The notes beneath the pieces are model-generated. The model saw only the letters and a list, made by a program, of their open reading frames with translations, searched no databases and was not told where the DNA came from. Positions 1 to 62,454 of a stretch of 64,000 nucleotides of DNA are shown here, one piece after another (positions within the stretch are counted from its first letter, which is position 1; each line of letters starts with the position of its first letter). Source of the DNA: Coriobacteriia bacterium. GTDB taxonomy: Bacteria > Actinomycetota > Coriobacteriia > Anaerosomatales > PHET01. The position numbers and the translations under genes are program-made. The stretch lies in NCBI GenBank assembly GCA_034370385.1, contig JAXMKZ010000011.1:165103-229102 (forward strand), written 5' to 3'.

Positions 1-756
1 CACACGCGACTTGAGCCGGGCACGGGCATCATCGCTCAGGCCGAGCTGATCGATCTCACGAGCAAGCTGCGCTTGTGTCCCGCTTCCTGCAAGGTACCCG
101 TTGACCTTCATCGCCGAGGTGCTCTCACGCAGCGCCTCTTCGTCATCGCCGAGCATCGCTCTGAATTCGGCCGTAATCGCTCCGTCACGCCGCAAGTACC
201 ACTTCTGGTGGTAGTCCTCGGCTGGCCAGAAGCGGTCAAGCCGGTCGATTCGCGTGACAACGGGCCTGCCGCGCTTCTCAGACATGGCGCGGGCCCTCTC
301 GCGGGCGATCTCGAGCTCTTCGGCGTCGCTCGCCAGCACGACATGGGCGTACTGGCCGCTTGTGGGGCTCGATGCCGCGTTGTACTCGCCTAGCACGAGG
401 TCCACGAGCTCCGCATAGCTGACGACGGTCGGGTCGTAGTCCACCTGCACGCACTCGGTGTGGCCTCTCATATCCTTGTACGTCGGGTTCTGAGAGTCGC
501 TGCCTGCGTAGCCGACGCGGGTCCTCCACACGCCTTCGACAAGCCCGAACCGGGCTTCGACGCCCCAGAATCAACCCAAACCGAACGTAGCGGTCGAAAG
601 CATTGCCGGAACCTCCTTGTCGATTGGTGCGGAAGCGGTGCGCACAGGAGCCGATGCGGGCTGCGTCGCGGCGTCACATCCCGCGAGTGCGACCCCCGTT
701 AGTGCGAGGGCGGCTGCGGCGACGAGAATCCGGCGGACGTGCACTGAGCGAGGCAC
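1..756 (-). CDS. msrA: Peptide methionine (S)-S-oxide reductase MsrA. The C-terminus runs off the window edge. An in-frame TGA (573..571) sits at the catalytic Cys position, so this is a candidate selenocysteine codon. The start is either GTG 756 (lipoprotein-type signal) or ATG 603.
   Basis: Manual minus-strand translation: MLSTATFGLG-TGA-FWGVEARFGLVEGVWRTRVGYAGSDSQNPTYKDMRGHTECVQVDYDP...AEDYHQKWYLRR. This matches the MsrA signature GCFWG..VGY.GG..PTY..GH.E.V.V.YDP. The frame stays open from 570 to position 1. Confidence 0.75.
541..557 (-). promoter_or_regulatory. Candidate bacterial SECIS-like hairpin 3' of the msrA UGA
   Basis: The mRNA reads UGA-UUCUGGGGCGUCG-AAGCCC-GGUUC-GGGCUU. This gives a 6-bp stem and a 5-nt apical loop starting with GG, about 19 nt after the UGA. 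Confidence 0.4.
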
Positions 757-924
757 GGGACACCTTCGCGAGTAGGGTGCGTGTCACCCTGAAGTGCAAT
801 TCACGTGCCTGCGATAGCAAACGGACCGCAGTCCGACATGTGCCCCCGTTCAGGGAGACACAACGAGTCCCCTGTGGCCACGATTCTCACTGTTGCCGCG
901 TCCCGCTTCAGCTAGACTCTCCGC

Positions 925-1914
925 ATGACTCCTGACGCAGCCGCCGCCCCTCGCCAGCGCCTCGTCGCCCTGGCGCGCATAGCGGCCGCCGGACTCATCT
1001 GGGGCACGATACCGCTGATCATGCGCAGTGCGGACGGCGCGTCGGTCGTCAAGGTGTTCTTCCGGGTCTTCTTCGCCTGGGTCGTCATCGCGCTGGGCTT
1101 GGTGGCCACCGGCGGCTGGCGCGAGCTTCGAGGGCTGTCACGCTCAAAGGTGCTGCAGGTGGTGGGACAGGGCCTGATCCTGACCCTCAACTGGTTTCTC
1201 TTTCTGACCGCCATCGACATGACGACCGTGGCCACGGCAGAGCTGCTCGGCTATACCGGCCCGGTCATCGTGGCGGCCCTCGCCCCCTACGTGACAGGCG
1301 AACCGTTCGATCGACGCGTGATCGCCCCCCTCTCGCTCGCCATGGTGGGCATCGTCGTGATCCTGGCCCCCCACGGCCTGCAGGTGGGCACCGACGAGGA
1401 GGCCATCGGCGCCCTTCTGGCGTTCGCCTCGGCCTTCACGTACGCCACGCTGCTTCTGCGCTCGAAGAAGATCCTGCGTGGCATCTCGAGCGGGGCGCTC
1501 ATGTTCATGGAGTACGCGACCGCATCGCTCGTGCTCCTGCCGTTTGTGATCGCGGCCTACCTGCGGGGGGACGCTCCGAGCACGCCCGTGGCTTACGCCG
1601 CTCTCGTCTCTTTGGGCATCATCCACACAGCGTTTGCCGGCTTCCTCTTCCTGGGAGGCTTGCGCCGGGTGCGCACCGACCATGCGGCGATTCTGACCTA
1701 CGTCGAGCCGGTGAGCGCGGTGGTGTTCGCGTCGCTGTTCCTGAGCGAAGCGCTGACGTGGACCACGCTCGTCGGCGGTGCACTGGTGATCGGCGGCGGA
1801 GTCGTCGTCGCCCGCCTTGAGGCCCGCGAGGGGATCGAGACCGTCCCCCTTGAAGCCGCCGGAACCGACGTGTGCCTCGATGATGCCGATTCGCGGTCCC
1901 CGGAACCACCGTAG
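925..1914 (+). CDS. EamA/DMT-family permease (about 10 TM)
   Basis: 329-aa hydrophobic ORF with two EamA-like halves. It is divergent from msrA. Confidence 0.8.
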   Translation: MTPDAAAAPRQRLVALARIAAAGLIWGTIPLIMRSADGASVVKVFFRVFFAWVVIALGLVATGGWRELRGLSRSKVLQVVGQGLILTLNWFLFLTAIDMTTVATAELLGYTGPVIVAALAPYVTGEPFDRRVIAPLSLAMVGIVVILAPHGLQVGTDEEAIGALLAFASAFTYATLLLRSKKILRGISSGALMFMEYATASLVLLPFVIAAYLRGDAPSTPVAYAALVSLGIIHTAFAGFLFLGGLRRVRTDHAAILTYVEPVSAVVFASLFLSEALTWTTLVGGALVIGGGVVVARLEAREGIETVPLEAAGTDVCLDDADSRSPEPP

Positions 1915-4776: not shown

Positions 4777-4925
4777 CTCCTCCGAGCAACGAAACCGCCC
4801 CGCAGATCATCGACGAGCAGCTTGAAGCATAGTGTATCCGCAATTCCGCGCCCGGCACACCTGCGTCAGGCAGGCCCGGAAGGGTCGGCTGACGGCGCTT
4901 CACGACGAGACCACCGTGTTCACGC

Positions 4926-5744
4926 TCAGACATCGCGCACGAGCAGCAGGTAGCGATGGGCGTCTGTGCGGAATCCGGCTGCCTCGTACGCAGTTCGCCC
5001 AGCGTAGTTGCTCTCCTGCGTACAGAGCGATATCCCGAGCGCCCCGCACCTGAGCGCCCACCGGTCCGCATCGCACAGGAGCGCGGTCGCAACGCCTCTG
5101 CGCCGGGCACCAGGGATGACCGCGAGCTTGCTCACCGACACGGTCGAGCCGAGGAGCGTCGACGCCGCGTAGCCGACCGCCACCCCTGCGTCATCTCGCA
5201 CCACACGCACGTGGTCGGTGGCGAGCATTCGCCCGAACTCCTCGGGGCCGTGTCGCCAGAACGCACCGAAGCACTCGACGTCGATGCGTTCAAGCGCCTC
5301 GACGTCGGTGGGCGTGGCCGCCTCCGGTGGGTGTGCCCGGGGCGTCCGACCGCGCGCAACGCCACCAGCGGCAACGGTGAACGCCACCAGGCCCTCAAGG
5401 TCGCCCATCCCGCACCGACGGTAGGGAGCGGCTGCGCCCTCCTGTATGAGCGGCGACATGACTCGACGGTATCCACGCGACGCTGCGATCGTCGCGGCCT
5501 GATCCACAAGACCGGCGATCCGAGCGGCGGGGGCACACAGCGCCCGTATCGCCAGTACATCCCCTCGGTCGCGCCACGCCTCGAGGACGATGACATCGCC
5601 TCGGTCTGAGACGCGCACGCGCCACGCACCTGCCTCGTGGAACGCGGCGAACTCCCGTTGCGTCCCCATGAGGTGCGCCGACCGGACCGCTGGCCACAGG
5701 CTCGCGAGCTCCTCGGAGCGTGCCTCCCGGGTCATCGTCGTCAC
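4926..5744 (-). CDS. GNAT-family N-acetyltransferase, apparently with two tandem GNAT-like halves
   Basis: The C-terminal half carries LAVIPGARRRGVATALL...AYEAAGF. The GTG start overlaps the upstream TauE stop (GTGA). Confidence 0.7.
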   Translation of the reverse strand: MTTMTREARSEELASLWPAVRSAHLMGTQREFAAFHEAGAWRVRVSDRGDVIVLEAWRDRGDVLAIRALCAPAARIAGLVDQAATIAASRGYRRVMSPLIQEGAAAPYRRCGMGDLEGLVAFTVAAGGVARGRTPRAHPPEAATPTDVEALERIDVECFGAFWRHGPEEFGRMLATDHVRVVRDDAGVAVGYAASTLLGSTVSVSKLAVIPGARRRGVATALLCDADRWALRCGALGISLCTQESNYAGRTAYEAAGFRTDAHRYLLLVRDV

Positions 5745-6529
5745 AGCAACGCGCCCACTTCACTTGCGCCCAGCCACAGGGCCATGGTCAGCAGCAACAA
5801 GGCGAATCCGATGCGTAGTCGACGATCGGCGGCGCCCGCACTGATCCGCGCGCCGACCAGTGCGCCGGGTATCACGCCGACCGTAAGGCCGGCCGCTATC
5901 GCCCAATCGATGTTCCCCAGCAGCGCGTGCGTGATGGTTCCCGGCACCGCCAGGAGTGCGACGGCGACCAGTGATGTCCCGATCGCCACTTTGATGGGGT
6001 ACCTGAGCCATCTCGTCAGAAGGGGAACGAGCACGAATCCGCCGCCCAAACCGAAGAAGCCCGAGTAGGCGCCGGTGAGCACCCCGATCGCCGCGAGCTT
6101 GAGGGCGCGCCCGCCGGTGTTCGGGACGTTGTGCGCATCGGCATCCTCACGTGGGGGCCGGTAGATCTGGATCGTCATGTCCGCTGCCGCCCAGACGATC
6201 AGAAGAGCCGTGCCGACGAGCACCACCGAACCACCGACGAGCCGGGTCGCCCACGCTCCCGCGACGGCGGTCAAAGAGCCCGCGAGGCCAACGACCACTC
6301 CGGCACGCACATCAGCGAGCCCCCGCCGCGCGTAGGAAGCCGCCCCGGTGATCGCGCTGGGCAGAATGACCGGCAGCGGCGTTCCGACCGCCACCAGGGC
6401 GGAGGCATCGGTGAAGAACCGAATCGCGGGCGTCGTGATGATGCCCCCGCCGATGCCGAACATGCCGGACAAGACCCCTGAGACGAACCCGATGCCCACC
6501 GCAACGAACGCGCCGGCCATCGAGCTCAC
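5741..6529 (-). CDS. TauE/SafE-family anion exporter (sulfite-exporter family permease)
   Basis: 262-aa polytopic protein with repeated GxGGG motifs (FGIGGGIITTP, FFGLGGGFVLVP). The GTGA overlap links it to the upstream gene. Confidence 0.8.
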   Translation of the reverse strand: MSSMAGAFVAVGIGFVSGVLSGMFGIGGGIITTPAIRFFTDASALVAVGTPLPVILPSAITGAASYARRGLADVRAGVVVGLAGSLTAVAGAWATRLVGGSVVLVGTALLIVWAAADMTIQIYRPPREDADAHNVPNTGGRALKLAAIGVLTGAYSGFFGLGGGFVLVPLLTRWLRYPIKVAIGTSLVAVALLAVPGTITHALLGNIDWAIAAGLTVGVIPGALVGARISAGAADRRLRIGFALLLLTMALWLGASEVGALL

Positions 6530-7785
6530 CTGGAGGGCGGTACGACCGGAAAACGCCCGGTGAGCGCGGTGCGGTCGATCTGACGTTCACCGGTGAACAG
6601 GGTCTCGAGCGCCACATCGCCCCAGATGCGCTCCATGAGCAGTGGCCAGCGTCGCTGGAACTCGAAGTAGTTCTGGCAGTTCTCGCGAGCGTAGGCGCCG
6701 GCTTCGCGCACGGCGTGGAGCCCGTAGCGGAAGTACAGGGCCTTCTCGGGCCGGGCGATCGCGCGCAGCATGCCCGTCATGAACGCGCGCCATCCGACCG
6801 ACGAGTCGATGAACTCGCCCGGGTAGGGCGCCATCGACTTCGGCGTCACCTGACGCAAGTCCACCTGAGACTTGGCGAACTCGATCTTGCGGTGCTCGTA
6901 CACGAAGCGATAGACGTCCTGCCTGAACCGCATCGCCTCGCTCACGGCAGTCGGCGGAAGGTGCAGCACGCACCATTCGTCGTCGATGAAGACGTCTCCG
7001 CCGTGCATGCGCGCGTTGATGACGTAGTCGACATCCTCGCCGCGTGTCACCCACGGGTCGAAACTCACCGCAGAGAACATGTCGCGGTGCAAAGCGAGGA
7101 TTCCGCCGAACGCGACCTTCGCACGCTGAATCCTCGGTGGCTTCATCACCACGTCCAAGGCCTTGTTGAATGCGTCCTGCTGACGCCAGAAGGCATCTGA
7201 CCAGTGAGGCTCGCTGTGTTTCTGCCAGCGCCCCTGGGAGTCCACGTAGTAGCCACTCTTGGCCAGCAGCGGCGTGCCGTCCTGCAGGTGAGCGCCCAGA
7301 CCGTACAGCGCCGTCTCGAGAAACGCCGCCGACTCGACCATCTCGTCGTCGTCGACGAACACCACGGAGTCATGCCCAAGCACCGCTGCCGCTATCAGGC
7401 CCACGTTGCGAACCGCTCCGTAACCGGTGAGCGTTATGCCCTCGATGAGATCGGCGAACTCGAGCTGCTCGAGTCGGCGGTGCAGCGACCCCATCTCCGC
7501 CGGGCCGAAGACGAACGCATCGATGTCGGAGAACTCATCGATGATATCCCGCACGCGGTCCTCCGCCTGGTGGGCGATGGCTTCCTCGGTGACGGCGACG
7601 ATGACAACCACGCGGCCCAGCCCACGCACATTGCGCAGGGACTGGAGGCATGCCCTGAGCGGCGGCTCGATGTCGTCGAGCGGCGTCGGGTGGTCGTAGA
7701 TGGCCGCGTTCTCGTCAACGCCGACGCGGCCTCGTCCGCCGGTCCGGCGGGTCCAGAAGGTCGGTATCACTACAACGGGGTCCAC
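6526..7785 (-). CDS. Uncharacterised GT-A-like (DXD) glycosyltransferase-like protein
   Basis: 419-aa ORF. The N-terminal VVVIPTF..., an internal VVFVDDDEMV (DXD-like) and later GEDVDY resemble a GT-A fold. I do not recognise the family. Confidence 0.45.
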   Translation of the reverse strand: MDPVVVIPTFWTRRTGGRGRVGVDENAAIYDHPTPLDDIEPPLRACLQSLRNVRGLGRVVVIVAVTEEAIAHQAEDRVRDIIDEFSDIDAFVFGPAEMGSLHRRLEQLEFADLIEGITLTGYGAVRNVGLIAAAVLGHDSVVFVDDDEMVESAAFLETALYGLGAHLQDGTPLLAKSGYYVDSQGRWQKHSEPHWSDAFWRQQDAFNKALDVVMKPPRIQRAKVAFGGILALHRDMFSAVSFDPWVTRGEDVDYVINARMHGGDVFIDDEWCVLHLPPTAVSEAMRFRQDVYRFVYEHRKIEFAKSQVDLRQVTPKSMAPYPGEFIDSSVGWRAFMTGMLRAIARPEKALYFRYGLHAVREAGAYARENCQNYFEFQRRWPLLMERIWGDVALETLFTGERQIDRTALTGRFPVVPPSR

Positions 7786-7842
7786 GGTGCGGCGGCTCCT
7801 GAGTCGGGTGCAGATCGTGTAGCAGCGCGCACCATGATACCG

Positions 7843-8529
7843 CTACGGAGCCGCTTGCGCCGTGATGGTGCGCTCATCGACCAGACAATGGCGAAGCGAC
7901 TCCTCCAGCACACGGTACGGTCGACTGCCGATGAGAAGCTCATTGCAGATCAGAGCCGCGGGCGTTGCTTCGATACCAAACGACAAGGCCATGTGACGGA
8001 ACTGATGGAGGCGCTCGTCGTACGTCCCCGCATCGAGCGCTCCCCGCGCCTCCTCGGCGCTGAGTCCGCACTCTTGTGCGATGCGCACGAGAACATCCAT
8101 CTCCCCAATATCGGCAGCGTGACCGTTGTAGGCAGCGAACAGCGCCTCGTGAACGAGCTCATGAACTTGTGGCCCCCCGTCGCGTGCGAACTCACCCAAT
8201 GAGAGCGCGAGGTGGGTGTTGGGCATGAACCCGGGCGACGCAAGGAGCAGATCGCCTTCGCGGGCCATGAGCTGCATGTGTTCCTCGACGCGCTCCGAAT
8301 GCCCGCCGCCAAACGCCTCCATCGATACTCCCCGCGCGTCGAGCGTAGGTCGCAGCTCGAACGGCACCAAGAACAGTTCGACTGCGTGCTCGCTGCGCAT
8401 ACGCTTGAAGCGTGGCCAGTCCAGGTAGCAGAACGGACAGGCGTAGTCGAAGAACACCAGAACCCGCGGCGTCACCGACTCACGGCTCTCGTCATTGTGG
8501 TCATGCTCACGGTCCGGGGTGTCAGACAT
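7843..8529 (-). CDS. DsbA/FrnE-like thiol:disulfide oxidoreductase, no signal peptide
   Basis: FFDYACPFCY thioredoxin-fold CxxC motif, with a DsbA-family helical insert. Confidence 0.75.
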   Translation of the reverse strand: MSDTPDREHDHNDESRESVTPRVLVFFDYACPFCYLDWPRFKRMRSEHAVELFLVPFELRPTLDARGVSMEAFGGGHSERVEEHMQLMAREGDLLLASPGFMPNTHLALSLGEFARDGGPQVHELVHEALFAAYNGHAADIGEMDVLVRIAQECGLSAEEARGALDAGTYDERLHQFRHMALSFGIEATPAALICNELLIGSRPYRVLEESLRHCLVDERTITAQAAP

Positions 8530-8571
8530 CGTCCTCCTTCAGTCAACGAGAAGTACGTACCCAACCCCCGC

Positions 8572-9591
8572 TCAGCGCACGATGCGCAACTCATGCCGGC
8601 ATGCGACGCACCGACCACGGCTATCGAGACCTGATGCATCGCACGCGAACCCCGATCGGTGCACGGCCACGGCCTGGCAGACGGGGCAGAGCGTATCCGC
8701 CCCTCCGACCACGTCCACGTTACCGAGGTAGACAAAAGACAGTCCCTCCTCGCGACCGATCCGCCGCGCTCGCTCAAGATCTGCGACGGGGGTCGGCGGC
8801 AGATGCGCGAACTCCAGGTACGGCACGAACCGAGTCACGTGCCACGGCGTGTCGACACCGAGAGCGGAGGCGATCCAAGCGGCCACGGCACGGAGTTCGT
8901 CATCGGAGTCGTTGATTCCGGGAACGACGTTGGTGACGCACTCCACGTGCATGCCATGCACGGCAGAAGCGCGCTCGGCTGCGGCTCTAACGGCCGAACC
9001 ATGGCCCACATGACAGAGCGCTTGGTAGGTCTGGTCGTAGTACCCCTTCACGTCGGTGCGCCAGACATCGACGTGTCCGGCGAACAGATCCAAGCCCTCC
9101 GCCGTCACGTAGCCGTTCGTGACCATGACCGTGTAGAGACCCGCCGCTTTCGCCGCACGTGCACCGTCGAGCACGAACTCGGGCCATATCGTCGGCTCGT
9201 TGTAGGTCCAGGCAACCCCCGAACAACTCTGCGCACGAGCGAGTTCAGGTATCCGCTCGGGATCCAGCGAGGATAGCGGCACGGTGCCGTCGTCGCCTCT
9301 GGGCCGTGAGATCTGCCAGTTCTGACAGTGCCCGCATCGCATCGAGCAGCCAACGCCACCCACTGACAGCACCCGGCTGCCCGGGTGAAAATGGAACACC
9401 GGCTTCTTCTCGATGGGATCGGCCGCAATCGAGCTGACCAGACCGTACGTCAGCGCCTCGAGGCGACCTGCGACCACGCCACGTGCACCACACACGCCCG
9501 AAGCGCCCTCGGCGATGAGGCATGCGTTGGGGCACAGGAGACAACGGACGCGGTCACCCTCCGCCCTCCACAGAAGAGCTTCGTGACCCAC
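8572..9591 (-). CDS. AmmeMemoRadiSam-type radical SAM enzyme (PflA-like activase family)
   Basis: N-terminal CLLCPNACLIAEGASGVCGAR motif followed by GCSMRCGHCQNW (CX3CX2C). Confidence 0.8.
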   Translation of the reverse strand: MGHEALLWRAEGDRVRCLLCPNACLIAEGASGVCGARGVVAGRLEALTYGLVSSIAADPIEKKPVFHFHPGSRVLSVGGVGCSMRCGHCQNWQISRPRGDDGTVPLSSLDPERIPELARAQSCSGVAWTYNEPTIWPEFVLDGARAAKAAGLYTVMVTNGYVTAEGLDLFAGHVDVWRTDVKGYYDQTYQALCHVGHGSAVRAAAERASAVHGMHVECVTNVVPGINDSDDELRAVAAWIASALGVDTPWHVTRFVPYLEFAHLPPTPVADLERARRIGREEGLSFVYLGNVDVVGGADTLCPVCQAVAVHRSGFACDASGLDSRGRCVACRHELRIVR

Positions 9592-9630: not shown

Positions 9631-11421
9631 CTAGTGGGTCTGTACCCGACTCGCCAGTTCGACGCGGTTGCGACCGCGACGTTTCGCGCGATACAGCGCG
9701 GCGTCAGCTGCCGAGAGCAACCCTTGGGGATCCGTGATCGACGGCCCGAACGCCGCCACGCCCAGAGATGCTGTGGCACTCACCCGCATACCGTGTTCCG
9801 TGTGCGAGACCATCGAGCCCAGAAGCGTCCGTAGCTTCTCCGCCACGACCCATGCGTCAGACTCGGTGGTGGCAGCCAACACCAGCGCGAACTCGTCGCC
9901 CCCGTAACGGAAGGCGATGTCCGTAGCGCGCAACTCCGACTTCAGCAGCACCCCGACCGAACGCAGCAGCGTGTCGCCGGCCGCGTGACCTTGCGTGTCA
10001 TTCACGCCCTTGAAGCCGTCGAGATCGAGCATGATCAATGCGAGGTCGTTCCCGTATCGCCTGGAGCGACCGACTTCTTCCTCAAGGCGCAGGTTGAAAG
10101 CTCGCCGATTGAACAGGCCGGTGAGGTCGTCTGTGACCGCCTCGGACTCGAGACGCTCGCGCTCGCGCGTGAGCCGCCTGCGCGCCAGCGGGAAGCACGC
10201 GTCCCACGACGAGTTGCCGAGGCAGACGGAGGCTGCGTGTTCGATACAGGTGTCGTAGCCGCAGGCGCCGCAGTCTAGTGCGTCGTTGCGGGTGAAGAAC
10301 TCACCTGCGGCCAGGGCCTGATCGATCTCGGCGTCGCTCGGCTCGACCCTCATCGCAGGATCCGGCGAGAAGGAGCGACGCAGGTCCACCGTCGGGCGGT
10401 CGAGTCTCAAGACGTCCCGCGGAGGCAACATACGCTCTCGCTCCGCGAGATCGATGTTGCGCTTGGCAAACACGGATACCCCGGCATTGACACACGGTCC
10501 GTCGATGCAGCTCTCGCAGCTCAGCATGTCCACCACCTCGGGGAAGACCTCACCGCGGCTGATTGCCGTCAGGAATCGGTCTATGTCCCTCAGCCCGCGC
10601 ACCACAGCTACGCCGCGGTCCGTGAGGTTGCTCTTCTGAAGAGTGCGGCGCGGGAACCCGTCGGTTGCCGAGAGCTCCTTGCGATGCGCAAGCGGCCCGG
10701 GCTCGCAGCCGTCGTTGATGGCGTGCGCCCCTTCCGCCACGAGCTTTCTCAGCTCATCGAAGCCGATCACAACGTCGACGTATTCAGCTGCAAGCGCTTC
10801 GTCCTTTCGGGCCCAACAGGGAGACGCGTAGACGATGGCCACCTCTGTGTGATGCTTGTCGCGGATCACGCGCGACTGGGCGATGTAGGGTGGCACCAAG
10901 GGAACGAGAGCCCCGGTGAGCGCAGGGTGGAAGAAACGAACCCAGTCCACCGCCACCGGACACGTCGAACGCAGCCGAGGAGGATGGACCGCATCGGTAG
11001 CGTGCACCTGTTCGTACGCCGCGGCGACGATCTCCTCGCCGACCACGGTGGTCTCGATGTGCTCGAAGCCGAGCGCGCACAGCGAAACCTCTACCTGCGT
11101 GGGCTCGAGCGGATGCAGCGCCGCGATGTACTCGCTGGCCAGAAGCATGACAACGGGAGTCTCGCCCTCAAGGAGCTCACGGACCAGGCCAAGATCGTCT
11201 CGGATGATGCGTGCACCGTTGCCGCATTCGGTGACGCACGCTCCGCACTTCACGCATCGCTCCTCGATGATCTCGGTGCGGCCGTCTATCACGCGAATCG
11301 CGCGTGCAGGGCAGTGGCGCGCGCATCCCCAGCACTCGCTGCACCGATCCGGGACGTGGATGATCAGCGGCTGCACCGCGCCGAAACCCCGCCCATTCGT
11401 CCCCTGCTGGTTGTGAACCAC
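9631..11421 (-). CDS. Fe-S sensor diguanylate cyclase: 2x[4Fe-4S] ferredoxin, [FeFe]-hydrogenase-like domain, RnfB-type Fe-S domain, GGDEF
   Basis: CSECWGCARHCP and CVKCGACVTEC ferredoxin motifs. H-domain-like motifs STCP, SPCWARKDE and LSCESCIDGP. CGACGYDTCIEHA...C Fe-S motif. C-terminal RYGGDEFALV with RxxD-type context. Confidence 0.8.
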   Translation of the reverse strand: MVHNQQGTNGRGFGAVQPLIIHVPDRCSECWGCARHCPARAIRVIDGRTEIIEERCVKCGACVTECGNGARIIRDDLGLVRELLEGETPVVMLLASEYIAALHPLEPTQVEVSLCALGFEHIETTVVGEEIVAAAYEQVHATDAVHPPRLRSTCPVAVDWVRFFHPALTGALVPLVPPYIAQSRVIRDKHHTEVAIVYASPCWARKDEALAAEYVDVVIGFDELRKLVAEGAHAINDGCEPGPLAHRKELSATDGFPRRTLQKSNLTDRGVAVVRGLRDIDRFLTAISRGEVFPEVVDMLSCESCIDGPCVNAGVSVFAKRNIDLAERERMLPPRDVLRLDRPTVDLRRSFSPDPAMRVEPSDAEIDQALAAGEFFTRNDALDCGACGYDTCIEHAASVCLGNSSWDACFPLARRRLTRERERLESEAVTDDLTGLFNRRAFNLRLEEEVGRSRRYGNDLALIMLDLDGFKGVNDTQGHAAGDTLLRSVGVLLKSELRATDIAFRYGGDEFALVLAATTESDAWVVAEKLRTLLGSMVSHTEHGMRVSATASLGVAAFGPSITDPQGLLSAADAALYRAKRRGRNRVELASRVQTH

Positions 11422-24925: not shown

Positions 24926-25522
24926 CTACATCTCGCGACGGGCTTCCAGCGCGCGGCCCAGCGTCACCTCGTCGGCGAACTCGATGTCGCCTCCGACGGG
25001 AAGTCCACTGGCTATCCGCGTCACACGTATGCCGAGAGGCTTGATGAGCCGCGCCAGATACAGGGCGGTCGTCTCTCCCTCGACGTTGGGGTTCGTGGCA
25101 ACGACGATCTCGGTCACATCGGCGGAGCCGAGGCGCTCGATGAGCTCTCGCATCCGCAACTGGTCAGGTCCGATTCCGTCGATGGGGGACACGGCGCCGT
25201 GGAGCACATGGTAGAGACCGCGGTACTCGTGCGTGCGCTCGACCGCTGCGAGGTCGCGCGGCTCTTCGACGACGCAGATCATCGACTCATCCCGCTGAGG
25301 ATCGGAACACACGCCGCACAGCTCGTCCTCGGCGAAGTTGAAGCAGCGCGGGCAGAAGTGGATGCTTCGCTTCACCTCGCTGATAGCGGAGGCGAGTCGG
25401 TCGGCATCGCTCGTCTCCACGGTCAGCAGCCAGTACGCGATGCGCTGAGCGCTCTTCGGCCCCACGCCGGGAAGCCTCTCGAGTTCCTCCAGCAGGCGCT
25501 GGATGGGAGTCGGATAGCGCAC
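24926..25522 (-). CDS. recR: Recombination protein RecR
   Basis: LPGVGPKSAQR HhH motif, CxxC...CxxC zinc finger and Toprim region. Confidence 0.95.
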   Translation of the reverse strand: MRYPTPIQRLLEELERLPGVGPKSAQRIAYWLLTVETSDADRLASAISEVKRSIHFCPRCFNFAEDELCGVCSDPQRDESMICVVEEPRDLAAVERTHEYRGLYHVLHGAVSPIDGIGPDQLRMRELIERLGSADVTEIVVATNPNVEGETTALYLARLIKPLGIRVTRIASGLPVGGDIEFADEVTLGRALEARREM

Positions 25523-25523
25523 G

Positions 25524-25832
25524 CTACATGAGCCCCGGGACGTTCATGCCCCCGGTGATCGCGGCCATCTTGGTGTTTGCCAGCTCCTGCGCCGAACGCA
25601 GTGCCTCGTTGGCCGCGGCAGCAACCATGTCCTGCAGCAGCTCGACGTCATCGGGGTCGACGGCCTCCGGATTGATGTGCACCGACTCGATCCTCAGATC
25701 GCCGGTCATGACAACGCGAACCATACCGCCGCCCGCCGACGCCTCGACCCGCTCTTCCTTGAGCTCCTCCTGCACGACGGCCATCTTGGCCTGAGCCTGC
25801 TGTACCTGCTTCATCATCTTTCCGAAGTTCAC
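25524..25832 (-). CDS. ybaB: YbaB/EbfC nucleoid-associated protein
   Basis: 102 aa beginning MNFGKMMKQVQQAQ..., located between dnaX and recR. Confidence 0.9.
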   Translation of the reverse strand: MNFGKMMKQVQQAQAKMAVVQEELKEERVEASAGGGMVRVVMTGDLRIESVHINPEAVDPDDVELLQDMVAAAANEALRSAQELANTKMAAITGGMNVPGLM

Positions 25833-27787
25833 TAGTCTTCCTTTCGTTCGTTTGCCGGGTGCTCGCTCACCATCTGCGCCCCAAGCTGATTGAACAGAAC
25901 ATGCTCCAAGTCTGATGCCGGCTCCGCAGAACCATCGGAGGACGCCGGCTCGGCGCTCTCGGCCGCGACGGCATCCTGCGGTGCCGCTACCGCAGGCTCG
26001 ACAGCGGCCGCAACAGGCTCGGCTGTTGTCACGGCCGGCTCGGCCTCAGGCGTTGCCTCAGCCACGCGCGGCGGCGCTTCCGGCTCCAAGACCGGACGTA
26101 CTGGTCCACGTCCCAGCTGGTAGCGGAAGGGCGGCGCCACGCCGAAGACCACCGCAAGAGCGTCTCTCAGCAGGATGCGCGTCTCAGGCTCTTCAGCCAA
26201 CTGCAGCGAGAACTGCTGGTCCTTGGGGAACTCGAGCACGAGCGTCCGTTCGTCCGCATCGACATCGATCTCGACCATCGCGAACGTGTGAGCACGAGCG
26301 GGTCGCAGCTTCTTGACCTCGACGAGCGTCGCCTTCCAAGCGCGCTTGGCAGAGGCCCTGTCGATGGTGCCGGCCTCGCCTACCGGGTGCACGGCAGCCT
26401 CACCGGGCGACGCCACGACGGCATCGGCTCCGGCCGATTCGGCTGCCGGGGCGACCGATGGTGCGACCTGCTCGGCGGCCTTCACGGCGACCGGTTCCGG
26501 CGCCGGTTCGGACGCGGGCATCTTCTCCGATGCCGCGTCCACCGTGGACTCGGAGGCCCCCACGGACACCGCGGGCACCGCGGCGGGCAGGGGCCCCGCC
26601 CCGGAGCGCAACGCGCGCTCGACGGTCTCCACTCGGGCGGCGAGCGCCGGAAGGGTCGTCTCGCCCTGCGGGCGCGCCATGCGCGTAAGCGCGATCTCGA
26701 GGGAGAGGCGCGGATCGCTCGACCAGCGCAGCTCCGCCGCAAGGTCCACCAGCACGTCGAGCACGTGCTCGATCCGCGAGGGGCCGCCGAACTCAGCGGC
26801 CTGTGCGATGAGGAGAGCCATCTCATCAGCCGGGCGGTCGACGATACCGCTCACGTCACCGATCACCGTAGCGACGTACAGGTCACGGACGTGGCCGGTG
26901 AGCTCCCGCACGAGCTCGGCCACATCGGCACCGGTCTCGACGATGTCGGCGACCCAGACGAAGCAACCGGCGACATCCTGACGCGCCATCAGGCCGGCGA
27001 GCGTGAACAGCTGCGAAGAATCGACCTCGCACAGCATCCCCTCGACATCGTCGACGGTGATCTCGCCACCCGTGTAGGCCGCCAGTTGTTCGAGGGCCGT
27101 GATTGCGTCGCGCATGCCGCCATCGGCATGACGCGCTATGAGGGTGAAGGCGCCCCGGTCGACCTTGAACCCCTCGGATTCGGCGATGAACCGCAGGTGA
27201 TCTGCGACGTCTTCGACGCTGATGCGATGGAAGTCGAAGCGTTGGCAGCGCGAGTGAATCGTGTCCGGGACCTTGTGCGGATGGGTCGTGCACATGACGA
27301 ACACGACGTGGGACGGCGGCTCCTCGAGCGTCTTGAGCAGCGCGTTGAACGACGACGGCGACAGCATGTGCACCTCGTCGATGATGTAGATCTTGTACGC
27401 GCCGCGGGTGGGCGCGTACTGCACGCGATTGATGATCTGATCGCGCACGATATCGACCTGGGTATGCGATGCAGCGTCAAGCTCGAAGACATCCGGGTGG
27501 TTGCCTTCGGCGACCGCGCGACACTCCTCGCAGGTGCCGTCGGGCTCCGCGGCGGGCGCTCGCTCGCACAGAAGGGCCTTGGCAAGAAGCCGCGCCGTGG
27601 TCGTCTTGCCCGTTCCGCGCGGCCCGGTGAACAGGTACGCGTGGGCGACCTTGCCCTCGGCGACCGCATTGCGCAGTGTGCGCTCTATGGGCTGCTGCCC
27701 GACCACCTCGTCAAACGTGGCCGGACGGTACTTGCGATAGAGCGACTGGTGCGCCATCGGCCTCGTTGCCCCTTGCGTCTTGAACAT
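25832..27787 (-). CDS. dnaX: DNA polymerase III gamma/tau subunit
   Basis: GPRGTGKTT Walker A, IIDEVHML and a CxxC zinc module, with an Ala/Pro-rich tau C-terminus. Confidence 0.9.
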   Translation of the reverse strand: MFKTQGATRPMAHQSLYRKYRPATFDEVVGQQPIERTLRNAVAEGKVAHAYLFTGPRGTGKTTTARLLAKALLCERAPAAEPDGTCEECRAVAEGNHPDVFELDAASHTQVDIVRDQIINRVQYAPTRGAYKIYIIDEVHMLSPSSFNALLKTLEEPPSHVVFVMCTTHPHKVPDTIHSRCQRFDFHRISVEDVADHLRFIAESEGFKVDRGAFTLIARHADGGMRDAITALEQLAAYTGGEITVDDVEGMLCEVDSSQLFTLAGLMARQDVAGCFVWVADIVETGADVAELVRELTGHVRDLYVATVIGDVSGIVDRPADEMALLIAQAAEFGGPSRIEHVLDVLVDLAAELRWSSDPRLSLEIALTRMARPQGETTLPALAARVETVERALRSGAGPLPAAVPAVSVGASESTVDAASEKMPASEPAPEPVAVKAAEQVAPSVAPAAESAGADAVVASPGEAAVHPVGEAGTIDRASAKRAWKATLVEVKKLRPARAHTFAMVEIDVDADERTLVLEFPKDQQFSLQLAEEPETRILLRDALAVVFGVAPPFRYQLGRGPVRPVLEPEAPPRVAEATPEAEPAVTTAEPVAAAVEPAVAAPQDAVAAESAEPASSDGSAEPASDLEHVLFNQLGAQMVSEHPANERKED

Positions 27788-27856
27788 GCTGATCTACCTT
27801 GCGAGTATACCGCCGCACTCTGACGGGACCTCGCGTGAATCACAGAAGCGCGCCCT

Positions 27857-27945
<89 letters not shown>

Positions 27946-28022
27946 GACGCGCTCCTCGCGGACGCACAGTATACCGTGCGCGCCGCCGAGCGACATGCTC
28001 ATTGGCGCCCTACTTCACGACC

Positions 28023-43351: not shown

Positions 43352-43414
43352 AATGCGACGCACAAGAGGCGAGTGGCTTCAGGCCCGCCGCAACTGCAAC
43401 TGCCAGGAGGTCCG

Positions 43415-44434
43415 ATGCGTCACACGATCCGCATCCTGCTATCTCTAGCTTTCGCCTGCGGGGCGATGGTAGGCAGCGTCGGGACGGCGAGCGCCGAACC
43501 CGTCCGTGCCTCGGCCGGCTACACGATCTCCGGCAGTGTGTATGCCGTGCCCCCGGTCAGGCCGCTCGACGAGGTCGAGGTGGCCCTCTACCAGTCGAAC
43601 GGCGCGGGAGGGTGGAGTCGCGTGAACTGGACGGTGCCGCTCAACGGCGAGTACCAGTTCAACGACGTCCCAGCGGGCGAGTATCGGGTCGGGGTCGAAC
43701 GGCCCGCAAACGCATCCAGCCCGCTGTGGCGCTATCCCCTGCCACTCTTCTGGAGCAACTACGCCTCGACGGTCGAATCGGCCACGACACTCCGTGTCGT
43801 CGGCGATGTGCAGCTCTCGTCCGTGGCGGCCTTCGAGAACTCGCGCGTCTCGGGCACGCTCCGGTCAGAGGTGAACGGCGCTCCCCTGTCTGGTGCGGCC
43901 GTGACACTGTACTGGTTCGCGGGCGCTGAAGCGCCTCGCACCGACACCGTGCTCACGGATCGGTTCGGCGAGTACTCCATCTACGTACCGAGGGGTGATG
44001 CGAACTCGTTCAGCCTGCGGTTCGCCAAGCCGGGCTACGTCACGGAGTTCTACGACGACCGGACCCGCCTCGAAGATACCGAACGACGAAGCGCCGACAC
44101 ATGGGAAGGACTGGGCGGTTGGTTGCGCGCGCGCATCACGGGCGCTGTCGCACCCTCGGTGCGCACGGTGCGCGGACGCGGCACGGTGCGAGTCACGACG
44201 ACCTTGCGTGACGGTCCCACCGGTGCGCCGAAGCCCAACGCGCAGTTCCGTCTCCAGCGCTCGTACAACAACCGCACGTGGAGCAACATCGGAGGCGTGC
44301 TGAAGACCGGTAGCACCGGACGGCATGTCGCGTCCACGACGGTGACCCGCACGACGTACTTCCGCTGCGTGCCGTTGTCTTCGTCGAAGTACCTCGGCGT
44401 GACCTCGTCTTCGGTGAAGGTGAGCAAGCTGTAG
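43415..44434 (+). CDS. Secreted protein with CarboxypepD_reg-like beta-sandwich repeats (paralog A)
   Basis: Signal MRHTIRILLSLAFACGAMVGSVGTASA. Repeats of the type YTISGSV...G.YQFNDVPAGEYRVGVE. C-terminal FRLQRSYNNRTW...RTTYFR module. Confidence 0.7.
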   Translation: MRHTIRILLSLAFACGAMVGSVGTASAEPVRASAGYTISGSVYAVPPVRPLDEVEVALYQSNGAGGWSRVNWTVPLNGEYQFNDVPAGEYRVGVERPANASSPLWRYPLPLFWSNYASTVESATTLRVVGDVQLSSVAAFENSRVSGTLRSEVNGAPLSGAAVTLYWFAGAEAPRTDTVLTDRFGEYSIYVPRGDANSFSLRFAKPGYVTEFYDDRTRLEDTERRSADTWEGLGGWLRARITGAVAPSVRTVRGRGTVRVTTTLRDGPTGAPKPNAQFRLQRSYNNRTWSNIGGVLKTGSTGRHVASTTVTRTTYFRCVPLSSSKYLGVTSSSVKVSKL

Positions 44435-44493
44435 AGAGAGCGGCCCGAGTCGCTCGTGGCCGGCTGCCTATCCACCGCGAACGGGGAGGAACG

Positions 44494-45867
44494 ATGCGCC
44501 GCACACTCAACGTACTACTGGCCCTCGCTGTGGCAACAGGGGTGATCATCGGCGCCGGGCTCTGTGCGACAGAGCCTGCGAACGCCACCACCGCCCCGCT
44601 GCTCGGTGGAGTGTGGGACGCAAGCGACAACCCGATCGATGACGTTCAGGTCGTGCTCTACCGCTACAATCCGGCCAGCGCCACCGACTGGGCCGTCGTG
44701 ACCTTCGTCGAACCCATGGGCGGCACCTTCGACTTTGGCGAAGTACCCACGGGGACCTACCGGGTCGGCATCAGGCCCCATCCTGACGCACCCGCCTCGG
44801 AACAATGGAAGTATTCGCCGATGTTCTGGGAGGATGCGTACTCCCTCGAATACGCCACAGATATCGACCTCGTCGATGGCGAGGCTGTCAATCTCCGCCT
44901 CAGGGTCAACCCCCAGCTCACGGGAACGCTGACTTCTGAGCAGAGCGGCCTGCCCATTGAAGGCGTGACCGTGCGCGTCTACTGGTACGAGGACGCGACG
45001 GACCTGACGGTCGAGACGGCGAGCACGACGACCGACGCGCAAGGGCGCTACGCCATCAGCGTGCCGGACACCGGCACGATACTGATCGAGTTCGCGGGCA
45101 ACGGGTGGGCTATGGAGTACTACCCGAACAAGGCTCGGTTCAACGAAGCCGAGCCCCGGACCTCAGGCGGCATGGTCATCGACGAGTCGCTCAGCCCGGG
45201 AGCGACGTTTCGCGTGGACCGGGCGCTCAGTCCCTTTGGTACCAGGATGCCCTCTGCCTGGACGGCGATCGAGGCGGGACTGCCGTATGGCATCGAACTC
45301 GAACGGCGCTTGGATCTGCCTGCAGCTGACCCTGCCCAGTGGGAGCCGTTCTGGATCATGCCGGCTCGAACCCGCTCTCAGTGGCCGGACTTTCTCCCGT
45401 ATGGGCAGTATCGCGTGCGCTTCGTCGCGCCCACCGGAACCTACCGCTCAGCGTGGCACGCGCACGTGGCCACACCGGAAGCAGCTACGCCGATGACCGC
45501 GGATCCCTCGGCCCGCAACATGGTTGCCGACGCCCGCTTCCTCGGCCGCACCAAGGCTTCAACGAGCATCCGTTCGTCGGTTGCGAGTGTGCGGCGCAAT
45601 GGGCGTGCGCGCCTCACCGTGACGATTCGTGACGCGTCAATCACCGGACGCACACCGTTCGCTCTGCCCAGCGCGCCGTTCCGTCTGCAGAGGTCGTATG
45701 ACGGACGAAGGTGGACGACGATCGGCGGCGTTCGCCGCACGGGCAGCGCCGGGACGTACGCGACGAGCCTCGGAATCTCCCGCACCACCTACTTCCGAGC
45801 CGTGCCCGCGGCCACGCCGACGTACTACGGGGCGACCTCATCTCGCGTTCGCGTGCGAGTCCGCTGA
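44494..45867 (+). CDS. Secreted protein with CarboxypepD_reg-like repeats (divergent relative)
   Basis: Signal MRRTLNVLLALAVATGVIIGAGLCA. GTFDFGEVPTGTYRVGI-type repeats. C-terminal FRLQRSYDGRRW...RTTYFRAVP module. Confidence 0.7.
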   Translation: MRRTLNVLLALAVATGVIIGAGLCATEPANATTAPLLGGVWDASDNPIDDVQVVLYRYNPASATDWAVVTFVEPMGGTFDFGEVPTGTYRVGIRPHPDAPASEQWKYSPMFWEDAYSLEYATDIDLVDGEAVNLRLRVNPQLTGTLTSEQSGLPIEGVTVRVYWYEDATDLTVETASTTTDAQGRYAISVPDTGTILIEFAGNGWAMEYYPNKARFNEAEPRTSGGMVIDESLSPGATFRVDRALSPFGTRMPSAWTAIEAGLPYGIELERRLDLPAADPAQWEPFWIMPARTRSQWPDFLPYGQYRVRFVAPTGTYRSAWHAHVATPEAATPMTADPSARNMVADARFLGRTKASTSIRSSVASVRRNGRARLTVTIRDASITGRTPFALPSAPFRLQRSYDGRRWTTIGGVRRTGSAGTYATSLGISRTTYFRAVPAATPTYYGATSSRVRVRVR

Positions 45868-46042
45868 GACGAGAGCCTCGTCCGAAGTGAAGATGCCGTT
45901 CGCCGACACGGTGTCCCGGTCGGCCCGCTGTAGTCTTGTGTAAGGGTCCATCCGCAGTAGCGTCGTCGGAAGGAGTAGCGTGCCACGGGTCTGGACGAGT
46001 ACCCTGATGCGCGCCCAGCCGTTCACGCCCACAGGAGGTCCG

Positions 46043-47065
46043 ATGCGCCACACGATCCGAATCCTGCTCACACTGACGCTCGGCTTCGGAGCGCTGGTAG
46101 GAGCCGTCGGGACCGCGAGCGCCGAACCCGTTCGTGCCTCAGCCGGCTACACGATCTCAGGCAGCGTGTACGCCATGCCCCCGATCAGGCCGCTCAACGA
46201 GGTCGCGGTGGCCCTTCACCAGTCGAACGGTGCGGGCGGGTGGAATCGCATCCGCTCGACAGTGCCGTCCGGCGGTGCGTTCCAGTTCAACGACGTCCCC
46301 GCAGGCGACTATCGGGTCGGTTTCGAGCCACTGGCGAACGCGTCGAGCCCGCTGTGGCGCTATCCCCTCCCGGTCTTCTGGAACAACTACGCCTCAACCG
46401 TCGAATCGGCCACATCGGTTCGAGTCGTCGGCGACACGGAGCTCGCACCCATCGCGATCTTTGAGAACTCGCGCGTCTCGGGCACACTCCAGTCTGCAGT
46501 GGACGGCGCCCCTCTGAAGGATGCGGCAGTGACGTTGTACTGGTTCTCGGGAGCCGGGGCGTATCGCACCGATACCGTGCTCACGGATCGGTTCGGCGAG
46601 TACTCGATCTACGTGCCCAGAGGGGATGAGAACTCATTCAGTCTGCGATTCGCCAAGTCGGGCTACGTCACGGAGTTCTACGACGACCGGACTCGCCTCG
46701 AGGACACCCAACGCCGAAGCGCCGACTCGTGGGAAGGGCTCGGCGGCTGGCTACGCGCACGCATCACCGCCTCTGTGACGCCCTCGGTGCGCACGGTGCG
46801 CGGACGCGGTGCGGTGCGATTCACGACGGTTCTTCGTGATGGTCGTTCTACGAGTGGCGCGATGGCTCGCACCGGCTTCCGGCTTCAGCGCTCGTACAAC
46901 AATCGCACGTGGACGAACGTAGGTGGCGAACTCAAGACCGGCATCACCGGCCGCTACACCTCGTCCATCTTGGTCACCCGTACGACCTTCTTCCGAGCCT
47001 TGCCGACCTCATCGTCCAAGTTCTACGGCGTCCCTTCGCCGTCGGTGAAGATCACGAAGAGGTAG
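46043..47065 (+). CDS. Secreted protein with CarboxypepD_reg-like repeats (paralog A')
   Basis: About 80% aa identity by eye to the 43415..44434 product over its full length. The SD/start context is identical (CAGGAGGTCCGATGCG). Confidence 0.7.
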   Translation: MRHTIRILLTLTLGFGALVGAVGTASAEPVRASAGYTISGSVYAMPPIRPLNEVAVALHQSNGAGGWNRIRSTVPSGGAFQFNDVPAGDYRVGFEPLANASSPLWRYPLPVFWNNYASTVESATSVRVVGDTELAPIAIFENSRVSGTLQSAVDGAPLKDAAVTLYWFSGAGAYRTDTVLTDRFGEYSIYVPRGDENSFSLRFAKSGYVTEFYDDRTRLEDTQRRSADSWEGLGGWLRARITASVTPSVRTVRGRGAVRFTTVLRDGRSTSGAMARTGFRLQRSYNNRTWTNVGGELKTGITGRYTSSILVTRTTFFRALPTSSSKFYGVPSPSVKITKR

Positions 47066-61517: not shown

Positions 61518-61741
61518 GGGATTCCCCTCCGAAACCATGGTTGCATGCCATCCGGCACCTGATGCTGATGCGGTGCGACATCGCCGCGCAGCCAGCATAA
61601 CCCAACGCGAGCGCACGAGCGGACGCCGAGACGGCACAGACGCCCGCCTCCCTGGGCTGCGACGGCGACCCCTGTCGAAAGGCGAGGTTGACTTGTAGGA
61701 ATGCGCCCATGCCACGCGAACACGTGGGCGAGCGGCGTGTG

Positions 61742-62146
61742 TCACGTGATGATCAGCGCGCCGGGATACGCACCGTGTGCACAGGCGTCCGCGCTCACGA
61801 GCGTCGCACCGAGCAGACTCGCGCACGCCGGCGCGAGCGCGTCGTAGAACGAGCAGCCCAGGGCGGCGCACTGGGTGGCGGCCTCGGCGATGACTTGGTC
61901 TTCGAGCGGAACGATCGTGATGCCCGACGCTTTCATATCCTCCCACGCCTCGGGAATCGCCCGATGGGTGAATTCGCGCCGCACGACGGACAGCACCTCG
62001 TGCACGAAATGCGTCGGCGCAACGAGCAGAATCTCTCCGTCCATTGCCCTGCGATACAGGACACGCGAGGCGTCCGAGCCGGGTTCGTCCATGAACCACT
62101 TCACCCCGATGGACGCATCGAGTGCGAAGGCTTCCCGCGAACTCAC
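61742..62146 (-). CDS. vapC: PIN-domain toxin VapC (pair 3)
   Basis: ALDASIGVKWF...HFVHEVL...FYDALAPA...LVSADACA. ATGA-type overlap with vapB. Confidence 0.85.
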   Translation of the reverse strand: MSSREAFALDASIGVKWFMDEPGSDASRVLYRRAMDGEILLVAPTHFVHEVLSVVRREFTHRAIPEAWEDMKASGITIVPLEDQVIAEAATQCAALGCSFYDALAPACASLLGATLVSADACAHGAYPGALIIT

Positions 62147-62454
62147 TCCCGCTCCCCGTCGTGCGCGTACCTGAGCGGGGCGGAGTCGTCCGTCTCTCTG
62201 ATCTCCCTGAGAATCTCGAGGCTCGGGCGGTCGTCGTTGATCGGATAGCGCAGGTGGAACGTCCGCATGCTTTCGAGCGCGGCGAGTCCCCGGGCCCTGC
62301 GCGCATCGCGCTCACGCTCGTCTGCGGTCTTGCCCAGGTACGTCGCGAGCGACTCCTGCACGAGTTCGCTGCGGGGCACGCCGGCAGCATCGGCCTCAGC
62401 GTCGAGACGCGCCAGCAACTCGTCGGGCAGCGATATGGTCACACGGGCGGTCAC
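62143..62454 (-). CDS. vapB: Ribbon-helix-helix antitoxin VapB (pair 3)
   Basis: MTARVTISLPDELLARLDAEADAAGVPRSELVQES is clearly related to the pair 2 antitoxin. Confidence 0.85.
   Translation of the reverse strand: MTARVTISLPDELLARLDAEADAAGVPRSELVQESLATYLGKTADERERDARRARGLAALESMRTFHLRYPINDDRPSLEILREIRETDDSAPLRYAHDGERE

Follow-up and report, generated by a model that had tools for sequence, protein, structure and literature searches.

MsrA is among the experimentally verified prokaryotic selenoprotein families, in which it carries the motif GUFWG/H (PMC13188914), and by 2006 a selenocysteine (Sec)-containing MsrA had been reported for Syntrophobacter fumaroxidans (PMC1794560). The enzyme of Clostridium oremlandii, CoMsrA, is a native selenoprotein with an activity 20-fold that of its Cys mutant; it is a cysteine-free protein of 209 residues (1-Cys type), its reductant is glutaredoxin and not thioredoxin, and its helical domain sets it apart from all other characterised MsrAs (PMC4479559). 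Here, we analyzed a 64,000-nucleotide stretch of contig JAXMKZ010000011.1 from a Coriobacteriia bacterium (assembly GCA_034370385.1; the whole stretch is referred to as the window), at the beginning of which the minus strand (756..1) holds a gene that we interpret, with a probability of about 0.9, as a Sec-containing MsrA of the C. oremlandii type. A study by Kim et al. 2009 is said to deal with the selenoprotein MsrA of Clostridium (Alkaliphilus) oremlandii OhILAs; the same enzyme is the subject of Lee et al. 2014/2015 (PMC4479559). A selenoprotein MsrA also occurs in Chlamydomonas reinhardtii; it is eukaryotic, has a SECIS (Sec insertion sequence) in its 3'-untranslated region and belongs to a different subfamily, and its likeness to the window gene, which we drew by description only, lies in the Sec at the catalytic position.

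The most upstream possible start of the window gene was a GTG (754..756, minus strand) with a Shine-Dalgarno-like GAAGGTG 4 nt upstream, and minus-strand translation from this codon at 756..754 gave VPRSVHVRRILVAAAALALTGVALAGCDAATQPASAPVRTASAPIDKEVPAMLSTATFGLG-TGA-FWGVEARFGLVEGVWRTRVGYAGS (also written VPRSVHVRRILVAAAALALTGVALAGCDAATQPASAPVRTASAPIDKEVPAMLSTATFGLG-TGA-FWGVEARFGLVEGVWRTRVGYAGSDSQNPTYKDMRGHTECVQVDYDP). The in-frame UGA was codon 62 (571..573, minus strand), the predicted Sec of a G-U-F-W-G active-site motif; it was followed by 190 further open codons up to base 1, and no additional stops or frameshifts were found in the frame. Codons 1–252 of the gene (1..756, minus strand) are inside the window and the remainder lies past base 1. 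The final 12 codons (RDTAADTWCPVP, then a stop) were read from L001, a 22-kb contig in the Logan assembly of SRR26726069 that was the same as the window in 756/756 bases and in which the C-terminus reads RLKSRVRDTAADTWCPVP before the stop. Because L001 supplies the missing end, the full protein has 264 residues. Its MsrA catalytic domain (187..594, minus strand; residues 55–190) was recognized by Pfam PMSR (PF01625) with an E value of 2.3e-34 and includes the catalytic Glu101 (456..454, minus strand). It is followed by the C-terminal helical domain of selenoprotein-type MsrA (1..186, minus strand; residues 191–253), which is cut at the window edge and was delimited by alignment to structure 4LWJ. 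The corresponding Pfam model, PF20939 (“Selenoprotein MsrA, helical domain”), is carried by many homologues and matched the window protein weakly (E 0.0069, below the gathering score), and TIGR00401 gave 103 bits, slightly short of its 108-bit cut-off.

Among solved structures, the top match was CoMsrA (4LWJ, 4U66 and 7C13; E 1.8e-38), aligned over residues 52–253 and thus over both catalytic and helical domains, while ordinary MsrAs reached only about 1e-22 and aligned in the catalytic domain alone. The alignment to 4LWJ extended through chain residue 206 of 217 and placed the TGA on catalytic residue 16 of CoMsrA (Cys16 in the structure, natively Sec16). This full-length match to a verified selenoprotein and the shared GUFWG motif make the window gene a member of a known selenoprotein family. 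The likeness runs end to end through the catalytic and helical domains, the UGA/Sec in G-U-F-W-G and a SECIS directly after the UGA, and the host is likewise an anaerobic Gram-positive bacterium. An earlier sequence-only reading of this DNA had proposed a minus-strand frame ATFGLG-TGA-FWGVEARFGLVEGVWRTRVGY with about 190 more open codons to the window edge, MsrA similarity throughout, a TGA at the catalytic Cys of GCFWG, and a hairpin AAGCCC-GGUUC-GGGCUU that begins 13 nt after the UGA, has its loop about 19 nt away and conforms to bacterial SECIS geometry. All of these features were recovered: the TGA at 573..571, the exact count of 190 codons, the PMSR domain, the correspondence with residue 16 of CoMsrA and the hairpin at 557..541, the geometry of which agreed with the bacterial model and the covariation of which exceeded that of 500/500 shuffles, as detailed below.

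The predicted bacterial SECIS hairpin spans 536..560 (minus strand), with an upper stem formed by 557..552 and 546..541, a lower stem that has a 2-nt bulge and reaches 560/536, and a 5-nt apical loop GGUUC (551..547, minus strand). If the U of UGA is counted as 1, A17-C22 pair with G28-U33 around the loop G23-G-U-U-C27, which leaves a UGA-to-loop spacing of 19 nt (mRNA nt 4–22). The minimum free energy (MFE) was -12.8 kcal/mol (nt 12–40), with z = -2.3 relative to shuffled sequences. The bSECISearch model of Zhang and Gladyshev (PMC13188914, Fig. 2) specifies a loop of 3–9 nt, an upper stem of 4–16 bp, a spacing of 16–37 nt and an MFE of at most -7.5 kcal/mol, and expects a G in the loop's two leading positions, after the pattern N1-G-[G|U]-N-N2. 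The window element lies within all four limits (loop GGUUC, upper stem of 6–7 bp, spacing of 19 nt, -12.8 kcal/mol) and shares the loop G pattern; on the other hand, the Sec-MsrA sequence, with CCC-GGUUC-GGG in 66/68 genes, is far more conserved than the generic model demands. No SECIS family was returned by Rfam scans, either permissive on 1..1000 or at the gathering threshold on the whole window. We also built a covariance model from 64 other species, leaving out the window, L001 and two homologues introduced below (L002 and L083). It produced a single significant match in the 64-kb window, at 526..573 (minus strand; 60.5 bits, E 1.9e-11), and the next hit had an E value of 0.22; such a test of the hairpin region had been suggested in the earlier reading.

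Evolutionary support for the hairpin came from a gapless alignment of the UGA plus 45 nt in 68 Sec-type genes. In helix columns 16–23 with 27–34, 78.7% of cells were paired versus 70.6% after shuffling (0/500 as high), the covariation score was 0.218 versus 0.101 (again 0/500 as high), and all slid controls were worse; the same helix was predicted independently by RNAalifold. Double-sided changes numbered 19 at pair 18–32, 23 at pair 19–31 and 7 at pair 23–27 (CG/AU/UA/GC, UA/GC and GC/AU, respectively). The pairing imposes covariation on the protein as well, such that D-A-R-F-G-L is encoded with GCC...GGGCU and D-S-R-F-G-S with UCC...GGGAG. In the loop, at least 90% of the 68 aligned sequences had G24, and all had U25 and U26. 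Synonymous sites were likewise constrained: the Gly codon was GGG in 66/68 Sec forms versus 2/10 Cys forms, and none of the 7 Cys forms from the genome scan described below had GGG, their codons being GGC, GGU or GGA. Sec forms had on average 6.25 of 8 pairs and -11.2 kcal/mol, compared with 3.4 pairs and -6.3 kcal/mol for these 7 Cys forms. Thus, the hairpin is conserved among Sec forms and missing from most Cys forms. With regard to the nearest Cys-type homologues, a TGT form (L089:440, protein P0005) retains the complete hairpin, and the TGC forms L087/L088:3106 and L090:613 have degraded ones. It looks as though these genes had been caught at stages of a change from Sec to Cys after which the SECIS decays; in L089 the change would be recent. 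The Cys-type genes of L087/L088, L089 and L090 adjoin msrB (SelR) and DsbD_TM/cupredoxin genes.

To place the TGA in the family, we ran a clade profile against GTDB genomes, a single one for each species, and retained the 80 top loci. When the DNA was read in frame, the catalytic codon was TGA in 73/80 loci, one of which holds two such genes, and TGC or TGT in the remaining 7/80; this is the comparison of Sec- and Cys-type homologues that had also been called for earlier. The TGA-bearing genomes belonged to at least seven phyla; their labels include Coriobacteriia, other Actinomycetota (Gaiellales among them), Chloroflexota/Dehalococcoidia, Desulfobacterota, Nitrospirota, Planctomycetota and Syntrophomonadaceae. 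At every TGA locus the flanks of this codon were conserved as peptide (..ETATFALG-U-FWGPD(A/S)RFG..VRTRVGYAGG). A homologue from another metagenome with 60% identity (L002) also had a TGA followed by an identical hairpin. The sequence-only reading had regarded Sec-type MsrA as confined to a few anaerobes and Chlamydomonas and as unusual for such a genome, and neither view was borne out: Sec is the majority state of the subfamily across many phyla, and the host is an anaerobic Coriobacteriia metagenome-assembled genome (MAG) in a phylum of which many anaerobic MAGs carry the Sec form. Actinomycetota account for no fewer than twelve of the 73 Sec-MsrA loci, which makes the gene unexceptional in this lineage, and it is not unusual for this genome either, because the Sec form prevails in the subfamily across anaerobic phyla.

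Two further observations were made among these relatives. In an Actinomycetes MAG, two Sec-MsrA genes (L004:1808 and L004:3052) are located on the same strand about 1.2 kb apart; one has a hydrophobic N-terminus and an LIGC lipobox, the other has neither, and they may be an exported/cytoplasmic pair. Besides, a close homologue found in two ENA assemblies (L085:3106 and L086:3106, protein P0004) has TCA (Ser), one base from TGA, at the Sec/Cys position together with an intact CCC-GGUUC-GGG hairpin; it may be a variant with Ser, an error of assembly or the result of a mutation that recently inactivated the gene.

Selection was assessed against L083, a relative from a different run (SRR22388173) that has 88% amino-acid identity and keeps both the TGA and a lipoprotein-type N-terminus. 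Over 223 aligned codons, the two genes differed by 59 synonymous and 23 non-synonymous changes. In the 19 codons directly upstream of the TGA (codons 43–61), 5 synonymous and 1 non-synonymous differences were counted; this excess of synonymous changes indicates both translation of, and constraint on, the region ahead of the TGA. The 11 hairpin-bearing codons after the TGA showed no differences at all, so that the SECIS region is under constraint at the nucleotide level. In addition, a P-(P/I)-I/L-D motif is conserved across the family ahead of Met52 and, together with the purifying selection in codons 43–61, shows that translation takes place upstream of this residue. Decay in relatives, for which the sequence-only reading had proposed to look, was not seen in L083, where the TGA was kept and synonymous differences dominated.

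Four other explanations of the in-frame TGA were considered. The one that survives best, though very improbable, is that the UGA is read by non-Sec means, either through genome-wide reassignment to Trp or Gly or through near-cognate insertion of Cys or Trp. Under selenium limitation, UGA is known to be read as Cys or Trp at a low level. However, TGA ends about half of the well-supported open reading frames (ORFs) in the window, so the genetic code is standard and not reassigned, and a UGA at a redox-active Cys position, with Cys homologues and a SECIS, is the signature of Sec. Still less probable is a pseudogene, i.e., a Cys-type msrA decaying after a TGY-to-TGA nonsense mutation. TGC and TGT are each a single mutation from TGA, public gene calls give truncated proteins starting MWRTRV, and the window showed no Sec machinery, all of which would suit such a gene; yet the TGA is shared by 73/80 related species, the frame has no further stops or frameshifts, synonymous changes far exceed non-synonymous ones relative to L083 on both sides of the TGA, and a conserved covarying hairpin would have no reason to exist.

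Ranked on a par with the pseudogene is the possibility of two products, a 61-residue peptide with the lipoprotein signal that ends at the TGA and a truncated MsrA initiated at an internal GTG or ATG. Protein databases do carry a 189-residue call of the latter type (P0001, start MWRTRV) and many alike. Such an MsrA, however, would have no nucleophile for catalysis and would miss the first beta-strand (FWGVEARFG..), a stretch that all homologues conserve as protein, and the internal starts vary between homologues (MWRT, MKGVW, MGLVNG, VGYAGG), so they are best regarded as gene-caller artefacts. Accordingly short entries are common: the nearest proteins in a collection of 5.8 billion were mostly about 190 residues long and started with MWRTRVGY.., MKGVWRT.. 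or VGYAGG.., directly past the TGA, a telltale sign that an in-frame UGA had been taken for a stop in gene calling. Most public entries of the Sec-MsrA subfamily (e.g., P0001, P0002, P0007–P0009 and P0011–P0016) are N-terminally truncated in this way and lack the active site and signal peptide. A sequencing or assembly error with TGC or TGT as the true codon is the least likely explanation, since, although only one base would be different, the Logan assembly of SRR26726069 reads identically and the TGA is also found in L083 (SRR22388173), L002 and dozens of other assemblies. Pseudogene and base-call error, which the sequence-only reading had kept as alternatives, were thus rejected by TGA conservation (73/80 species), the substitutions in L083, the second run from which it derives and the covarying hairpin, and can be considered effectively excluded. 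Its central proposal, a Sec at the MsrA catalytic position with a SECIS, is supported by more than 70 species, covariation, the L083 substitution pattern and homology to CoMsrA.

On this basis, the UGA at 573..571 would be decoded as Sec, with the hairpin 13–37 nt downstream (CCC-GGUUC-GGG core) acting as a bacterial SECIS that brings SelB·GTP·Sec-tRNA(Sec) to a ribosome with the UGA in its A site. Sec62 of GUFWG would then attack the sulfoxide, releasing methionine and leaving a selenenic acid.

The window protein differs from CoMsrA in its termini and in its cysteines. CoMsrA starts 15 residues before Sec and has no N-terminal hydrophobic segment or lipobox, whereas the window protein has an N-terminal extension of about 50 residues with a predicted lipoprotein signal peptide (676..756, minus strand; residues 1–27) in which an Arg-rich n-region and a hydrophobic core precede the lipobox L-A-G-C. 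Under the lipoprotein rule we applied (basic n-region, hydrophobic h-region and [LVI][ASTVI][GAS]C with Cys at position 15–35), the sequence VPRSVHVRRILVAAAALALTGVA-LAGC qualified, with Cys27 (678..676, minus strand) as the lipobox Cys. The signal is followed by a linker of about 25 residues that closes with the family-wide P-x-I-D motif. An equivalent signal with the lipobox IASC was present in L083, and among 74 complete Sec-type genes 56 had an N-terminal hydrophobic segment and 25 a lipobox-like motif. In contrast to the 1-Cys CoMsrA, the window protein contains Cys27, Cys102 and Cys260. The clade-specific Cys102 (453..451, minus strand) is located next to catalytic Glu101 and is invariant in the actinobacterial clade, and Cys260 lies in a C-terminal Cys-Pro tail (..TWCPVP) past the window edge, as read from L001; CoMsrA has neither. 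A Cys within the last 15 residues was found in 32/74 Sec forms (22 as a Cys-Pro motif) versus 1/10 Cys forms. This departure from the 1-Cys type is a difference of subtype and does not affect family membership.

Given the lipoprotein signal, Cys102 and the C-terminal Cys-Pro tail, the window enzyme is probably exported, anchored in the membrane and recycled through a C-terminal resolving Cys. In such a scheme, the LAGC signal would direct export and lipid anchoring at the membrane's outer face, and the enzyme may there repair oxidized methionines in envelope proteins. The selenenic acid would be resolved by the Cys of the flexible ..WCPVP tail, possibly also by Cys102, and a thioredoxin-like partner would then reduce the enzyme, unlike in the 1-Cys, glutaredoxin-dependent CoMsrA. 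The broader proposal is that this gene and most of the subfamily are surface-exposed, lipid-anchored Sec-MsrAs recycled via the Cys-Pro tail by an exported thioredoxin-like system, and that they constitute a mechanistic subtype apart from the cytoplasmic CoMsrA, the only characterised bacterial Sec-MsrA; we give this joint proposal even odds. In L002, DsbD_TM and thioredoxin-like genes lie a few kb from the Sec-MsrA gene, which fits an extracytoplasmic reducing pathway; the nearest redox gene in the window codes for a DsbA-like protein about 7 kb away. Extracytoplasmic Cys-type Msrs fed by CcdA/DsbD-thioredoxin systems are known, for example Neisseria PilB and Streptococcus pneumoniae MsrAB2. 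The window enzyme resembles these in its predicted location outside the cytoplasmic membrane. However, they are Cys-using MsrA/MsrB fusions, and the window enzyme would be a Sec-containing, stand-alone MsrA with a helical domain, beside which the window contains no reductant genes. The proposed export subtype would be concealed by the truncation of the family in databases, which arises because gene callers end at the UGA. Only the probable lipoprotein/export feature and the resolving-Cys tail go beyond described biology.

Several points weigh against the interpretation developed here. Export was deduced by sequence rules only, L005–L008, which are among the closest relatives, have no signal peptide, and Cys102 is on the strand beside the catalytic Glu and may point away from the active site. 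L001 may share a sample with the MAG, and its support for the base call is for that reason not fully independent. The window yielded no second selenoprotein gene, and a crude scan of it for further in-frame TGA genes, based on GC content at third codon positions, gave antisense-frame artefacts only. Finally, no selA, selB, selD or tRNA-Sec was detected in the 64-kb window, in the 6 kb beyond it (L001) or in the fetched flanks. ARAGORN reported 0 tRNAs in the window, and its tRNA-SeC scan of all fetched loci was negative. Pfam/NCBIfam scans of about 36 window ORFs identified no SelA, SelB or SelD, PurL being the sole AIRS-domain protein, and tblastn searches of all fetched loci with E. coli SelD and EF-Tu gave no match. 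We infer that the host genome possesses the Sec machinery. A literature search on Sec use in Coriobacteriia returned nothing specific.

With regard to genomic context, the relatives of the window are environmental Coriobacteriia/Actinobacteria MAGs. An anaerobic lifestyle fits, since the window encodes pyruvate:ferredoxin oxidoreductase, a [FeFe]-hydrogenase-like protein and radical-SAM enzymes. A cluster at 5741..9591 (minus strand) contains an AmmeMemoRadiSam-type radical SAM enzyme, the DsbA-like protein, a 419-residue protein without a family match and a TauE-like permease. When this radical-SAM/DsbA-like/TauE cluster (5.7–9.6 kb) was compared with selenoprotein models, the one result was a weak sub-threshold match between the DsbA-like protein and a family of thioredoxin-like (seleno)lipoproteins. 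A 596-residue protein at 9631..11421 (minus strand) has an N-terminal ferredoxin/[FeFe]-hydrogenase-like large-subunit domain fused to a C-terminal GGDEF diguanylate cyclase and is possibly an H2- or redox-sensing synthase of cyclic di-GMP. The only Rfam match in the window was the bacterial small signal recognition particle RNA (RF00169, 62.9 bits) at 27851..27946 (minus strand), directly upstream of dnaX (25832..27787, minus strand) and recR (24926..25543, minus strand). Three consecutive paralogues of 353, 457 and 361 residues, each with a CarboxypepD_reg-like domain (43373..47065, plus strand), and a 1651-residue beta-helix protein (57435..62390, minus strand) are probably cell-surface proteins. 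Outside the window, L002 has a peroxiredoxin/AhpC-TSA-like gene (4174–4938, plus strand) that was called as two ORFs joined in frame by a TGA at 4582–4584. It belongs to a known selenoprotein family, reads ..NRTFA-TGA-PFC.. (UxxC), is 5.4 kb from the Sec-MsrA gene of that contig and is probably a second selenoprotein of that organism.

The window gene belongs to an already characterised, widespread bacterial selenoprotein family, and its correct annotation is a 264-residue selenoprotein rather than a 189-residue fragment or a pseudogene. A Sec-MsrA implies decoding of UGA as Sec in this Coriobacteriia MAG. In many anaerobic phyla, Sec is the majority form of this MsrA subfamily, most members of which have export or lipoprotein signals, unlike CoMsrA. 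This observation points to the repair of envelope proteins by a selenoenzyme in anaerobes, which would be a modest and testable extension of described biology and not a new system.

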